In this document: positions 56,242-64,000 of the stretch, piece by piece | How the letters are laid out: every line of letters begins with the position of its first letter | Position numbering within the stretch: the first letter of the stretch is position 1 | DNA from: a virus | Lineage: Duplodnaviria > Heunggongvirae > Uroviricota > Caudoviricetes | IMG/VR virus record: IMGVR_UViG_2651869695_000003 | Length of the DNA: 64,000 nucleotides | Reading direction: 5' to 3' (one strand) | Notes under the pieces: generated by a model | Seen by the model: the letters and a program-made list of their open reading frames with translations, nothing else | Told to the model about the DNA's origin: nothing | Databases searched by the model: none | Program-made: the position numbers and the translations under genes

Positions 56242-57377
56242 CAATCAGGAAACACCGCCAGGGAGAAACGATCAATATAACTTTCACCTACAAAGGAGTT
56301 AGATGTCGTGAGCCACTTTCCAATCTGGAAGTAACACCAAAGAACATTAAATACGCCGAGCGTACACTCGGCGAAATCCATAATAAGATCGAAAGGGGAA
56401 CATTCATTTATGCAGAATATTTTCCCCGTTCTGCTCGTTTGAAAATTTTTGGTAATGCTGCCACTGGCAAAACGGTAAAAATGTACCTGGACGAATATCT
56501 TGAAATCTGCGAAACGAGGAAACTATCACCATCCACGATTGGTGGTTATAAAAAATGCCGGAGTGCGTTAGCCTCGCTTCACATTTGCCCTGCAAGTGAA
56601 TTAACACCAGCAACCCTGAAAGCGTGGATTCAAAGCCAAAAAACGACCTTAAAAACCATTCGCAACCAGTTATCTTTCCTGCGGTCAGCACTTGATGAAG
56701 CCGTAACCGATGGGGTACTTCAAATTAATCCCGTATCGTTAGTAACTGCTTCGCGCTACCAAAGTGATAAGTCAGAAGCAGAAAGCAGCTACGTGGTTGA
56801 TCCGCTATCACCAGCAGAAGTTGATGCATTACTAGCAGCAGCCGGAAACAAACAATGGGAGAATCTGTTCCGGTTCGCTATACATACAGGTCTGCGTAGT
56901 TCTGAATTATGTGCCCTTCGATGGCGTGATATTGACTTTGTAGGGATGACTGCCCACGTCCAGAGCGCCAGTGTTGTTGGTGTAATCAAAGGTACCAAAA
57001 CAAAAGCAGGTACTCGAAAAGTTGAACTGACAGATGAAGCAATGTCTGCACTAATAAATCAGAAACCGTTCACTTTCATGAAGGACGCGACTGTCTTTGA
57101 AGATCCAAAAACCAATAAACCTTGGGCCAGCGCAGACGCCATAAGAAAGAAGGCATGGGTGCCAACTTTACGTAAAGCCGGAGTCCGTTACCGTAATCCT
57201 TATCAAACTAGACATACATTTGCTACAAAACACATTAGTCAAGGTGTTAATTTGTTTTGGTTAGCCGCTCAAATGGGGCATAAAGGACCAGAAATGCTAT
57301 TTAGGCATTACGGCCGTTATCTTAAAGATTATGATAACAATAGCACACACAATCATTTGATAAATTGTACTAATTAA
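56202..57377 (+). CDS. Tyrosine integrase (phage integrase family)
   Basis: C-terminal catalytic region with R...HxxR...Y pattern (TRHTFATKHI ... LFRHYGRY). Confidence 0.9.
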   Translation: MGQTKLLKLPRGVTIRKHRQGETINITFTYKGVRCREPLSNLEVTPKNIKYAERTLGEIHNKIERGTFIYAEYFPRSARLKIFGNAATGKTVKMYLDEYLEICETRKLSPSTIGGYKKCRSALASLHICPASELTPATLKAWIQSQKTTLKTIRNQLSFLRSALDEAVTDGVLQINPVSLVTASRYQSDKSEAESSYVVDPLSPAEVDALLAAAGNKQWENLFRFAIHTGLRSSELCALRWRDIDFVGMTAHVQSASVVGVIKGTKTKAGTRKVELTDEAMSALINQKPFTFMKDATVFEDPKTNKPWASADAIRKKAWVPTLRKAGVRYRNPYQTRHTFATKHISQGVNLFWLAAQMGHKGPEMLFRHYGRYLKDYDNNSTHNHLINCTN

Positions 57378-57416
57378 ATGATAATCTCTACTTCTGATTG
57401 GAAGTAGAGATTTCAC

Positions 57417-58235
57417 ATGAATAACACAGATTTAATAAAAATGTTAGGTTACTCAATTACCACTACCGACTTCATAGCCATAATAAGTGTCATAATTGCA
57501 TTTTTTGCAATGTACCAAACATGGCAGCAAAGAATAATTTCAAACAAACCTCAAATCTTACCTAAGAATATAAAATTCACATGGATGCACAGAGATAACT
57601 TGAAATTATTTAAGAACATAGAAATATCACCAACCACTTTGAATATAGAGCTTCTCAACATAGGTCTTGGCCCAGCTATAAAAATAAACCACTACTGGTC
57701 TGAAGAGTATGAGAAATATATTAAGATAAACAAATTCAAAATAGATAATAACAACACACAAAAATCACATGAGATATTTTTGCAAAATGAAGAGTTTTTT
57801 ACAATCAAAGACAACAATAACTTCTTGAATGTTGATATTTTTGGTAGAGGTCCGCAAAAACATAATAGCTTTCAAAAAAAAGGAACTTTGATAGAATTTA
57901 TAACTCCGAATATTAAAGACAAAGAGAAAACAACCATACCATTTCCCCCATTGGTGCCGGAATTAATTGGTAATTATCTTGTAACCACCTCCATCTCATC
58001 GTTTATAGGGCCGGACCTTATCCTTGAATATAGAGATGTAAACAATAAGAAAAGAAAGAAAATTTTCACAACAGAATTTAAGAGCGTATCTTTTTACGGA
58101 AATGGCTTAGATCTAATTTTAGACATAGATATTCTTTTCACATCCAAACAGTGTTGGACACAGGTTGTCCTAGAAAGGATACGCAAAAGCTACGCAGATT
58201 TTATGGATGAGCATGATTTTAATAAAAACAGATAG
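57417..58235 (+). CDS. AT-rich hypothetical protein with N-terminal TM anchor (cargo between int and att)
   Basis: 272-aa ORF, Asn/Lys/Ile-rich, very low GC. Confidence 0.5.
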   Translation: MNNTDLIKMLGYSITTTDFIAIISVIIAFFAMYQTWQQRIISNKPQILPKNIKFTWMHRDNLKLFKNIEISPTTLNIELLNIGLGPAIKINHYWSEEYEKYIKINKFKIDNNNTQKSHEIFLQNEEFFTIKDNNNFLNVDIFGRGPQKHNSFQKKGTLIEFITPNIKDKEKTTIPFPPLVPELIGNYLVTTSISSFIGPDLILEYRDVNNKKRKKIFTTEFKSVSFYGNGLDLILDIDILFTSKQCWTQVVLERIRKSYADFMDEHDFNKNR

Positions 58236-58242
58236 TTAAAAA

Positions 58243-58279
58243 AATTCGGACTCGGGTTCAACTCCCGCCAGCTCCACCA
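58243..58279 (+). other. Partial tmRNA (ssrA) 3' end = prophage att core / junction
   Basis: TTCGGACTCGGGTTCAACTCCCGCCAGCTCCACCA matches my recollection of the E. coli tmRNA 3' end; no tmRNA body upstream. Confidence 0.6.
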
Positions 58280-58326
58280 AAATTCTCCATCGGTGATTAC
58301 CAGAGTCATCCGATGAAGTCCTAAGA

Positions 58327-58540: not shown

Positions 58541-60485
<1,945 letters not shown>

Positions 60486-61721
60486 AGTGACACCAAGGAA
60501 GCGGACTACGTTCTCTATGATGGCGATGGCCTTGAGCTACTTATCAAATCCAGCGGGAGTAAAATCTGGCAGTTTCGCTACATTCGCCCTGTCACCAAGA
60601 AACGTGCGAAGAAGAGCATAGGCCCCTACCCGTCAGTTACGCTTGCCGATGCCAGAAACTACCGGGCAGAGTCACGCTCTCTCCTGGCGAAACAAATCGA
60701 TCCACAGGAACATCAGCAAGAACAACTTCGCAGTTCGCTTGAAGCTAAAACCAATACTTTCCAACTCGTGGCTGAACGATGATGGAATGTGAAGAAAGCC
60801 AGCGTGACAGAGGACTATGCCGACGATATCTGGCGCTCTATTGAAGAGATGTCTTTCCTGCAATTGGCGACGTTAGCGTTACAGATATTAAAGCTCACAC
60901 ACTGGTTCAGGCCGTCCAACCGGTTCAGGCCAGAGGAGCAAAACCGTTTGTCGCCTGTGCCAGCGCATTAATGAGGTCATGACCTATGCCCAAAACACAT
61001 GGCTGATTGATGCTGTTCCCAGCGTTAATATTGGTAAAGCCTTCGAGAAGCCTCAGTAAAAGAACATGCCCAGCATTCGACCGGATCAGCTACCTCAACT
61101 GATGCAGACAATGCGAACAGCCAGCATTAGCCTTTCCACACGCTGCCTGTTCATGTGGCAACTTCTTACTATTACCCGCCCTGCCGAAGCGGCTGAAGCT
61201 CGCTGGGAAGAGATAGACATAGAAGCACAAGAGTGGAAGATTCCTGCAGCACGCATGAAAACGAACCGCGACCATACTGTTCCATTGTCAGATGAAGCAA
61301 TTGCGATACTGGAGATGATGAAGCCGTTAAGTGGAAATCGAGAATTTATCTTTCCCAGCCGCATCAAGCCAAACCAGCCGATGAACAGTCAGACCGTAAA
61401 CGCATAGCTAAAACGCGCAGGTTTTGGTGGGGTGCTCGTTTCACACGGCCTGCGATCTATCGCCAGTACAGCCCTTAATGAACAAGGCTTTCCGCCTGAT
61501 GCCATTGAGGCAGCACTTGCCCATGTAGACAAGAATGAAGTTCGTCGCTCTTATAACCGCAGCGATTACCTGGAGCAGCGTCGTCCAATGATGCAGTGGT
61601 GGACGAATTTTGTTCAAGCGGCAGATCGTGGAAGTATTATTGAAGGTGGGATGAAAGGAATGCGATTGGTTGGATAACGATTCACTCTGCCTACGTTATT
61701 ACAAATAGCGTCCGATTAGAG

Positions 61722-62641
61722 GTGTGATTCATAGACATCGTTTCAATTTTCTCAGTTCAAGTTCAAGCTTGTAATTCTGTTCCTGTATATGCTCTTCATT
61801 GGGCTGATACTTTGCATGAACGGCATCGGAGTATGGTGTTTTCTCAGCAAGTTCAAAGTAGCGCTCCATCGGAGTTTTACCGTTGTGAGCGCTATGAGGA
61901 CGTTCCCAGTTATAGTAATGCTGCCATTCTGCCTGCAGTTCCTTCAGGTCATCAGCAGAAAGATCTACGGTAGCGTAAGACTCTGCTTTGTCTGTCTTTT
62001 GGGAACGTTCAACCTTTCCGTTAAGATGAGGTGACGCTGGCTTATTTGGACGAAACTTGATGCCGTATTATTTTAATCTTTCCTGCACTTTAACGGCAAA
62101 AAATTCTCTTCTCCGGTCTGTCTGAGAGCGCTATATCGGGAAAGGCATTTCTTCAATAACACAATCAATAAAATCCAGTGAGTTTACCGCCGTGCGACGA
62201 GAGTAGAGCCTCAGGACTCTGTAGCGAGTGCAATCATCAACAGATGTGTACTGATATAAGCCGGGGCCAATTTTACAGGTATCCATCTGAACCCGATCAC
62301 CGGGAACAGGGCGTTCGTAGCGAATGAAATCAACTTCACGCCGAAATTTAACAACAGGTTTAACCTGATTCTGGCAAAGGACTTTGTGGATTGTTGCTAT
62401 TGCCAGTGAGTCGTTTTAACTCGCTTTGAATACGTCTTGCACCCAGATTTCGCTGAGAACGTAACTCCAGAATCAGAGCGACTTCGCAAGTACCGGTTTT
62501 CGTTGATGGTGAACGCTTGAGGCGACGGCATATAAATCCCGCATCACCGGACGTTTCATAGAATTTTACCCACTGTAGCCGCTGCTGAATTTCCCTGTAC
62601 ATAGTGAGGTATTATAGTGAAACGATGTCTATGAATCACAC
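61722..62641. mobile_element. Degenerate IS (rve/DDE transposase fragments, IS481/IS3-like) with perfect 24-bp terminal inverted repeats
   Basis: GTGTGATTCATAGACATCGTTTCA at both ends in inverted orientation; minus-strand translation contains ...YNWERPHSAHNGKTPMERY (transposase C-terminus) but frame is broken. Confidence 0.55.
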
Positions 62642-62781
62642 AATTCAAAAATGACGATCAAACAATTCTGTGAACAGGAACATATTCTGGTGTCCACAGA
62701 AGGTCATTTTACTGGTGTAACGGATGAGGTACTGGCTGAGTTAAATCTCAAGCGACGTGTCGGTATTCTGTTAACAGCTTT

Positions 62782-63003
62782 TTGGTGATACCAGACATAT
62801 TACGATTAACTGACATGATTGCTGTTGTACCCAGCCGTATGGTCCCGAACAACAGTGACCTTACTATCATTCCCTTACCGATTAAAATTCCAGGCTTCAC
62901 TAAAAGCATGGCGTGGCACGAGCGTACTCATCATGATCCAGCCCATCAATGGATTCGCGCTTTGTGCTTTGAGATAAACCAGCACTCCACAACGGTGATA
63001 TAA
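62782..63003 (+). pseudogene. LysR-family regulator 3' fragment (putative)
   Basis: C-terminal-domain-like sequence in two frames, beginning right after the IS. Confidence 0.35.
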
Positions 63004-63138
63004 GTTTTCTTATTCAGATCATAAAGAATAACGATTGGCATTATAACACAATAATCTCAATAATTGTTGCTGCCACATTGAATACGGCTTCTGAAGCAAC
63101 ATGCTCAGCACAATTAATTACCGTAACTGGAGAAATTT

Positions 63139-63635
63139 ATGAACGAGATTAACTGGCCTGAAGGTTTTGTTCCTGGTTTTACTGATAACTTTGTTTCCAA
63201 TGAAATGATTATCTCTGGTCTTAATGTTAAAGATATCTGGCCGCTTCTGAGTCAGCCATTCCTGTGGCCAAAAATTGTGCTGATATTCGCTTTTACGATA
63301 ACAAAAAGCCAGAACTGGAAAATGGGGTGCGTTTCTATTTCAAAACCTTTGGTTTTCCTGTTGAAGCTCAGGTTGTGGAGTTTGTCCCACCGATGGAAGG
63401 CAAACCTGCTCGTCTGGCCTGGCACGGATGGTCCGGTGAAGAAAATACTACTCAACGTCTCGATGTACATCATGCATGGTTACTGGAGGATCTTTCCAGT
63501 AACCGGGTACGTATCCTGACGCAGGAAACACAGAACGGAGTTCCGGCAAAAGAACTGGCAAATACTCGCCCGAACCCAATGCTGAATGGTCACCAGGCAT
63601 GGCTTGATGGCCTAGTTGAAGCAGCAACGAAATAA
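63139..63635 (+). pseudogene. Frameshifted small protein (SRPBCC-like?)
   Basis: Two overlapping ORFs (63139..63519 and 63264..63635) that together give one ~165-aa protein. Confidence 0.35.
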
Positions 63636-63685: not shown

Positions 63686-63928
63686 CAAAAATTTTTATCA
63701 CTTTTTTACTCTTACTATTAGCCACGGGTAAAAAGTGGCGTTTTCGCAACCAGTGAACGGTCACCTAAAAAATCACCGAAATTCTTATCAGTAGCTGAAG
63801 TAATGGTATTGCCGAGGACCATGTAAATCGTCTGAAAATGATGAAACTACAGATGTATGGTTGTTCTGGATTCGAATTACTGAGGCGAAGGGAAATGAGT
63901 CCACTGGCATGAAAATCTCCCCTAAGTT

Positions 63929-63961
63929 CTGTCTCTTGATCAGATCTCCTGATCAAGAGAC
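63929..63961. repeat. Palindromic IS-terminus-like sequence
   Basis: CTGTCTCTTGATCAGATCT followed by inverted CTGATCAAGAGAC; the first 19 bp match my recollection of the IS50 inside end. Confidence 0.3.
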
Positions 63962-64000
63962 TTCATCACCAGGTAACCCTCAACCATATCCTGAAGTCTG

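Follow-up and report, generated by a model that had tools for sequence, protein, structure and literature searches.

[quoted passage not shown]

A short segment that is bounded by matching inverted repeats yet encodes only a broken transposase raises the question of whether it is a small non-autonomous element still open to mobilization in trans, or the remains of something larger. Such a segment lies in the 64,000-nucleotide stretch of DNA analysed here (the window), where a sequence-only reading had described a 920-bp element with perfect 24-bp terminal inverted repeats. These repeats are real. The 64-kb window contains two occurrences of the sequence GTGTGATTCATAGACATCGTTTCA, at 61722-61745 on the plus strand and at 62618-62641 on the minus strand, with 0 mismatches, and no such 24-nt match was obtained in any of 100 dinucleotide-preserving shuffles. 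A search for inverted repeats returned the same pair, with 24-nt arms showing 100% complementarity and separated by 872 nt. Although the repeats bound positions 61722-62641 as had been proposed, the true element extends from 61721 to 62642, corresponding to 922 bp with repeats that match at 24/25 positions. Moreover, what looks like a small element in its own right is a 1020-bp insertion sequence from which 98 bp have been lost, namely, a degraded, ISEc18-like IS481-family member. The features of the locus are listed in Table 1.

Table 1. Positions in the window of the element, its lesions and its neighbours.
Feature	Position	Strand	Basis or remark
Decayed IS481-family (ISEc18-like) insertion sequence	61721..62642	-	922 bp vs canonical 1020 bp; alignment to full-length copies
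IRL, beside transposase start	62618..62642	-	25/25 identical to canonical TGTGTGATTCATAGACATCGTTTCA
IRR, transposase-distal	61721..61745	+	24/25; outermost base G, not T
N-terminal transposase fragment, 80-aa ORF, helix-turn-helix lost	62360-62602	-	ORF list, Pfam
51-aa ORF	62131-62286	-	ORF list
46-aa ORF	61729-61869	-	ORF list
Remnant of rve/DDE core and C-terminus	61732..62442	-	Motifs VQMD, QTDR, KVER, YNWERPHS
Scar of 87-bp in-frame deletion	62522..62529	.	Master coding-strand nt 114-200, ~29 codons, roughly codons 25-54
Junction of 11-bp frameshifting deletion	62410..62411	.	Master nt 320-330, ~codon 94
Q190* (CAG to TAG)	62131..62133	-	Nonsense, specific to window copy
E211* (GAA to TAA)	62068..62070	-	Nonsense, also in pMAR2 copy
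Left neighbour: tyrosine integrase pseudogene, three ORF pieces	60459..61677	+	Pfam Arm-DNA-bind_3, Phage_integrase
Right neighbour: lysR-type regulator, C-terminal ~120 codons, frameshifted	62644..63003	+	Cut at ~codon 185 of 304
SRPBCC-domain gene, frameshifted; conserved partner downstream of lysR	63139..63635	+	PGAP

The limits of the element were set by comparison with full-length copies elsewhere in E. coli. A core reading TGTGATTC...GAATCACA is common to all copies, and the target duplications begin 2 bases outside this core. Because the duplications thus start 1 base beyond the limits first proposed, on both sides, the canonical element is 1020 bp long and carries 25-bp terminal inverted repeats (TGTGTGATTCATAGACATCGTTTCA) that start with TGTGTG. 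Its ends, TGTGTGATTC...GAATCACACA, fit TGT...ACA termini, as described for the related eukaryotic IS481EU elements (PMC10045372). Perfect 7-bp target duplications were seen at four of seven distinct full-length insertion sites, i.e., those of the EC1515 copy (CCTGACT), the C5 copy (CATTATT), the B7A copy (CATAAGG) and the O170 plasmid copy (TTTTATC). In the full-length C5 and B7A copies, which occupy different sites and have perfect duplications, the transposase-distal terminus reads TT instead of TG, such that the second base of this end seems to tolerate variation. By contrast, the outermost base of IRR is T in all other copies examined and is kept at the other seven insertion sites examined, with the window copy, which has GGTGTG at this end, being the sole exception. 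A simple point mutation, and not a deletion end-point, could account for the G at position 61721. No target duplication was found around the window copy at any boundary offset, the only match being a trivial 3-bp ATT at offsets that are not adjacent.

Assignment to a family relied on the NCBIfam model NF033577 (transpos_IS481), for which the curated cutoff is 224 bits. The intact master transposase scored 267.2 bits against this model, with the next best family, IS3, reaching only 93.7 bits (cutoff 160). Intact transposases, as had been sought, are encoded by copies in the EC1515 and SCEC020001 chromosomes (WP_021536680.1), in CFSAN061761 (WP_021543695.1) and on a plasmid of an O170:H18 strain (WP_216803968.1); WP_021536680.1 and WP_021543695.1 each score 267 bits against NF033577. 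The stitched translation of the window copy also gave NF033577 as its best match (190.7 bits; E 3.8e-56), falling under the 224-bit cutoff because some 33 residues are deleted. The membership of the window copy in the IS481 family follows from its 97% DNA identity to intact copies. In the masters, a single 323-aa ORF combines a helix-turn-helix region (Pfam HTH_28/HTH_32, residues 7-108) with an integrase core (rve/rve_3, residues 133-277), in which VQMD (residues 137-140), QTDRG (from residue 193) and KVERS (from residue 229) are candidate D-D-E motifs assigned by motif only. The presence of both domains in one ORF with no programmed frameshift is as expected of IS481 and sets these elements apart from IS3. 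Since IS481 elements encode one DDE transposase and generate target duplications of 2-15 bp (PMC10045372), the single DDE transposase and the 7-bp duplications seen here fit this family. Longer versions of the element elsewhere in the collection are annotated as 'IS481 family transposase', while a plasmid search revealed copies named by PGAP 'IS481-like element ISEc18 family transposase', such as WP_032084311.1 in NZ_AP027489.1. No evidence contradicting the identification as an IS481-family, ISEc18-like element was encountered. In the literature, no paper naming the window element in E2348/69 was found, with ISEc18 appearing only in tables of mobile elements.

The window copy lacks the open transposase frame of the masters. 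As had been noted from the sequence, the segment encodes only fragments of an rve/DDE transposase in different frames. Its ORFs (80, 51 and 46 aa) are short, are confined to the minus strand and occupy two frames, the 80-aa ORF being out of frame with the other two, and Pfam gave weak matches of the 80-aa and 51-aa ORFs to HTH_32 and rve. When the intact transposase was compared with the window by tblastn, residues 87-323 could be aligned at 90% identity, and the YNWERPHS...KTP motif reported earlier is present in the stitched translation. Base by base comparison with the intact EC1515 copy, taken as reference, revealed 29 differences. In the intact copy, two GCGACGGC repeats lie 87 bp apart; the window copy keeps one of these, and the 87-bp deletion takes out the helix-turn-helix. 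The reading frame is further disrupted by the 11-bp deletion, also present in plasmid copies of the same strains, and by the two nonsense mutations. To these are added 24 further substitutions, including the terminal base at 61721; homopolymer indels number 0 among the lesions. In both E2348/69 and RM14723, the segment is annotated by PGAP as a frameshifted, internally stopped pseudogene of an 'integrase core domain-containing protein'.

To determine the distribution of the element, 5426 complete E. coli genomes were searched by megablast, which placed the origin of the window in the EspC-island region of enteropathogenic E. coli. Over its length, the element is 100% identical in 11 genomes and 99.9% identical in nine more, these including four E2348/69-type O127:H6 assemblies. 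In this manner, the 87-bp-deleted form was found in 20/5426 genomes, at one place per chromosome; the genome-wide count proposed earlier thus showed it to be the sole copy of the element on each of the 20 chromosomes. A 1720-bp query comprising the element and 400 bp on each side was fully covered in the same 20 genomes only, and the 400-bp flanks provide an identical setting in all 20. The 87-bp-deleted form is, therefore, confined to one locus. By comparison, near-full-length copies occur in ~218/5426 genomes, at 1-3 places per genome. Neither blastn nor tblastn with the master revealed a second copy or fragment in the 64-kb window, the searches adding only a distant rve match to the istA gene of an IS21 element at 59525-60340. 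No empty site, in which the two flanks are joined, was found among the complete E. coli genomes, and the right flank was present in the same 20 genomes only.

The genes on either side are a tyrosine integrase pseudogene and a truncated LysR-like gene, just as had been read from the sequence, with Pfam recognizing Arm-DNA-bind_3 and Phage_integrase in the former and LysR_substrate in the latter. PGAP describes the left neighbour as 'integrase domain-containing protein, frameshifted; internal stop', and the end of the element lies 43 bp from the stop codon of this pseudogene. On the right, the LysR_substrate fragment at 62782-63003 corresponds to Pfam positions 146-204 of 209. In E2348/69, the order given by PGAP is ssrA, an IS21 pseudogene, the integrase pseudogene, the window element, a hypothetical protein, the SRPBCC pseudogene and espC. 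An integrase and five putative transposases have been assigned to the EspC island in a review (PMC7545054).

Relatives of the truncated lysR gene were found by scanning species-representative genomes. In Pantoea sp. AS142, an intact lysR gene (304 aa) is followed by a gene for an SRPBCC protein (168 aa) in the same order and orientation as in the window. DNA homology between Pantoea and the window amounts to 79.7% and extends from 62644 to 63634, beginning at the terminus of the insertion sequence, at lysR codon ~185. The breakpoint in lysR is thus seen directly, and the N-terminal half of the gene is absent anywhere in the window. The lysR-SRPBCC pair is intact in Pantoea, Rahnella and Yokenella, with protein identities of 77-81%. 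As the pair is present only in these 20 genomes of the complete E. coli collection, it represents decayed cargo of the island.

Several observations concern the remainder of the window. In an ARAGORN scan of the whole window, neither a tmRNA nor a tRNA was detected. Similarity to the EspC-island locus of E2348/69 does not begin until the last ~38 nt of ssrA, with a junction near 58242 that was found in no complete genome of the collection. Positions 57300-58280 match a site-specific integrase and a hypothetical gene of other strains, and G+C content is 0.30 at 57500-57999 as compared to 0.44-0.54 in neighbouring DNA. In the DNA upstream of the junction (1-58241), a second integrative element seems to be stacked in tandem at the attachment site in ssrA. 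An IS21-family element (istB, istA; 58649-60406, minus strand) separates the attachment remnant derived from ssrA from the integrase pseudogene; related genomes label it IS100kyp-like, and in E2348/69 it is annotated as a pseudogene. Among the 20 genomes, the left end of the island is variable, and RM14723 instead has intA, an IS3 element and a truncated integrase. At the other side, similarity to E2348/69 ends at 63928, where a palindromic sequence, CTGTCTCTTGATCAGATCTCCTGATCAAGAGAC, occupies 63928-63962. This sequence, which resembles an IS4/IS50-type end, may mark another insertion sequence boundary just before the end of the window.

Taken together, the anatomy and distribution of the element make it very probable that the segment is a dead copy of an ISEc18-like insertion sequence that inserted into the lysR gene of the island, lost the DNA on one side, underwent decay of its transposase and was inherited vertically. 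In the history proposed, a 1020-bp IS481-family element would have entered a lysR-type cargo gene of the ssrA-linked EspC pathogenicity island. We infer that loss of the transposase-distal DNA came after insertion, by way of either an IS-adjacent deletion or recombination with another copy. Such loss would have removed the 5' 555 bp of lysR together with one copy of the target duplication, perhaps also the outermost base (T) of that end, and would have brought the element to its present distance from the integrase stop codon. The 87-bp deletion probably arose by slippage between the two GCGACGGC repeats, taking with it the DNA-binding helix-turn-helix, and decay of the transposase would have continued with the 11-bp frameshifting deletion, the two nonsense mutations and further substitutions. 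Such a copy, predicted to make no transposase, would then have been passed on vertically with the island. No genome with an intermediate state, in which insertion has occurred but the flank is retained, was found in the collection. Likewise, no matching flanks, as a sign of reciprocal exchange by recombination between insertion sequences, were detected by eye among the window copy, the pMAR2 copy and the two pZ1323HEC0423-2 copies.

The 11-bp deletion has a wider distribution than does the 87-bp deletion. It was found in exactly 25 records, corresponding to 20 chromosomes and five plasmids of the same strains, and in four flank contexts. These are the EspC island (61721-62642 in the window), a site beside bfpL in pMAR2-type plasmids, a site between espT and nleH in pZ1323HEC0423-2, and a site by Tn3 and insertion sequence remnants in the same plasmid. 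The 7-bp target duplication was found at 0/4 of these loci. The two copies on pZ1323HEC0423-2 (NZ_CP148335.1) are 1001 bp each and differ by one base. Both carry the 11-bp deletion along with deletions of 7 bp and 1 bp, and they cease to resemble each other precisely at the termini of the insertion sequence, which indicates that a dead element was duplicated as a unit.

The copy beside bfpL on pMAR2, the EAF plasmid of E2348/69, is 98.4% identical to the window copy. The two have in common the 11-bp deletion, E211* and the lack of a target duplication, but the pMAR2 copy differs in having neither the 87-bp deletion nor Q190*, in retaining the canonical TG terminus and in its locus. It, too, is frameshifted and contains stops. 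When variable sites of the window, pMAR2 and pZ1322HEC0010-2 copies were set out in a matrix, a mosaic pattern emerged. The pMAR2 copy shares its bfpL-adjacent site, as well as 203T and 467T, with the Z1322 plasmid copy, which is without the 11-bp deletion, yet it has the 11-bp deletion and E211* in common with the copy on the chromosome of its own strain. Such mosaic sites suggest gene conversion between chromosome and plasmid. The presence of the 11-bp deletion at four loci thus reflects either gene conversion or the copying of dead elements in the past. That the dead lineage was copied to new sites by a transposase acting in trans is a rather doubtful proposition, with gene conversion among co-resident copies fitting the mosaic pattern at least as well. 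Were copying in trans to have occurred, ISEc18-like transposases of the IS481 family would work efficiently in trans, and 'dead' insertion sequence copies in virulence islands and plasmids would represent a latent source of rearrangements.

For the window copy itself, mobilization in trans at the present day is unsupported, and its immobility is argued from distribution and anatomy. The segment had been proposed to be non-autonomous and mobilizable in trans. We consider improbable such a reading, in which it would be a derivative resembling a large MITE, with functional ends, that has been, or could be, mobilized by a transposase supplied from elsewhere. Such mobilization would draw on what remains of the repeats, in which the internal part of both is retained (24/25 and 25/25), yet one end of the window copy has an altered outermost base, the canonical base being kept at the other seven sites. 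Cleavage and strand transfer at IS3/IS481-type and retroviral-type ends require a terminal CA-3'. A helper could in principle be provided by the intact, closely related transposases in circulation in E. coli, whether chromosomal or carried by conjugative plasmids. No cognate working transposase was, however, found in the same cell in either E2348/69, where the element is present in two places (the chromosome and pMAR2) and both copies are pseudogenes, or Z1323HEC0423, where all three copies are frameshifted. Many insertion sequence transposases, moreover, act preferentially in cis.

Past movement is addressed by the distribution of the dead copies. The four flank contexts of the lineage with the 11-bp deletion, and the two 1001-bp copies with similarity ending exactly at the element termini, have the look of a dead element copied as a unit. 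Against this, neither the window copy nor the other three 11-bp-deleted copies present a target duplication, the mosaic of variable sites favours gene conversion among copies in the same cell over transposition, and the 87-bp-deleted form occupies one locus in 20 of the 20 genomes. Membership in a MITE-like family was rejected, in that a single locus rather than several, no target duplication and, in E2348/69 and Z1323HEC0423, no resident helper were found.

Still less probable is co-option of the remnant, whereby the 80-aa peptide or the repeats would regulate genes of the island, or the 24-bp repeats would form a functional hairpin. Identity over the element is 99.9-100% across the 20 genomes, but the pseudogenes that flank it show the same degree of conservation; the 80-aa ORF has lost the helix-turn-helix, promoter and terminator scans of the element showed no excess over shuffled controls, the genes to the left and right are pseudogenes as well, and arms separated by 872 nt fit the termini of an insertion sequence and not a regulatory hairpin. 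That the transposase is really intact, with the breaks being sequencing or assembly errors, is refuted and retains next to no probability, given that the breaks are not homopolymer indels but large deletions (87 and 11 bp) and two base substitutions that recur in 20 independent complete genomes (11 at 100% and nine at 99.9% identity over the element), such that the transposase is truly broken, as had been claimed.

As a dead copy inherited with the island, the element is a routine insertion sequence pseudogene, having already been flagged as one in the RefSeq annotations of E2348/69 and its relatives. What is gained here is a correct statement of its boundaries and family (IS481, ISEc18-like), as well as an account of the truncation of lysR and of how fragments of an integrase gene and of lysR come to adjoin. 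In addition, the 87-bp deletion offers a stable lineage marker for the 20 genomes carrying this EspC island. The sharing of lesions between chromosomal and plasmid copies, a trace of either gene conversion or the earlier copying of dead elements, is mildly interesting.

When compared with known systems, the window copy resembles bacterial MITEs and other deletion derivatives of insertion sequences in keeping its terminal inverted repeats while encoding no working transposase. MITEs, however, are typically much shorter, are multicopy and have target duplications on either side, whereas the window copy is near-full-length, occupies one locus and has no duplication. The intact masters of the same lineage in EC1515, SCEC020001 and the O170:H18 plasmid have the same ends as the window copy and 97.1-97.5% DNA identity to it over shared columns. 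Unlike the window copy, these masters measure 1020 bp, keep the transposase frame open and lie between perfect 7-bp target duplications.

ISEc18, as represented by a PGAP-named copy rather than by the ISfinder reference sequence, has the same canonical length of 1020 bp and 25-bp repeats identical to those of the window lineage. The window copy is 98 bp shorter than ISEc18 and non-coding, and the ISEc18 name is withheld from the lineage by PGAP. The ISfinder threshold for assignment to the same insertion sequence is about >90% identity for DNA and >95% for protein. At the DNA level, the ISEc18 copy is 91.6% identical to the window copy and 92.1-93.1% identical to the full-length copies of the lineage, and its 323-aa transposase, likewise combining helix-turn-helix and rve domains, matches the master of the window lineage at 306/323 residues (94.7%).
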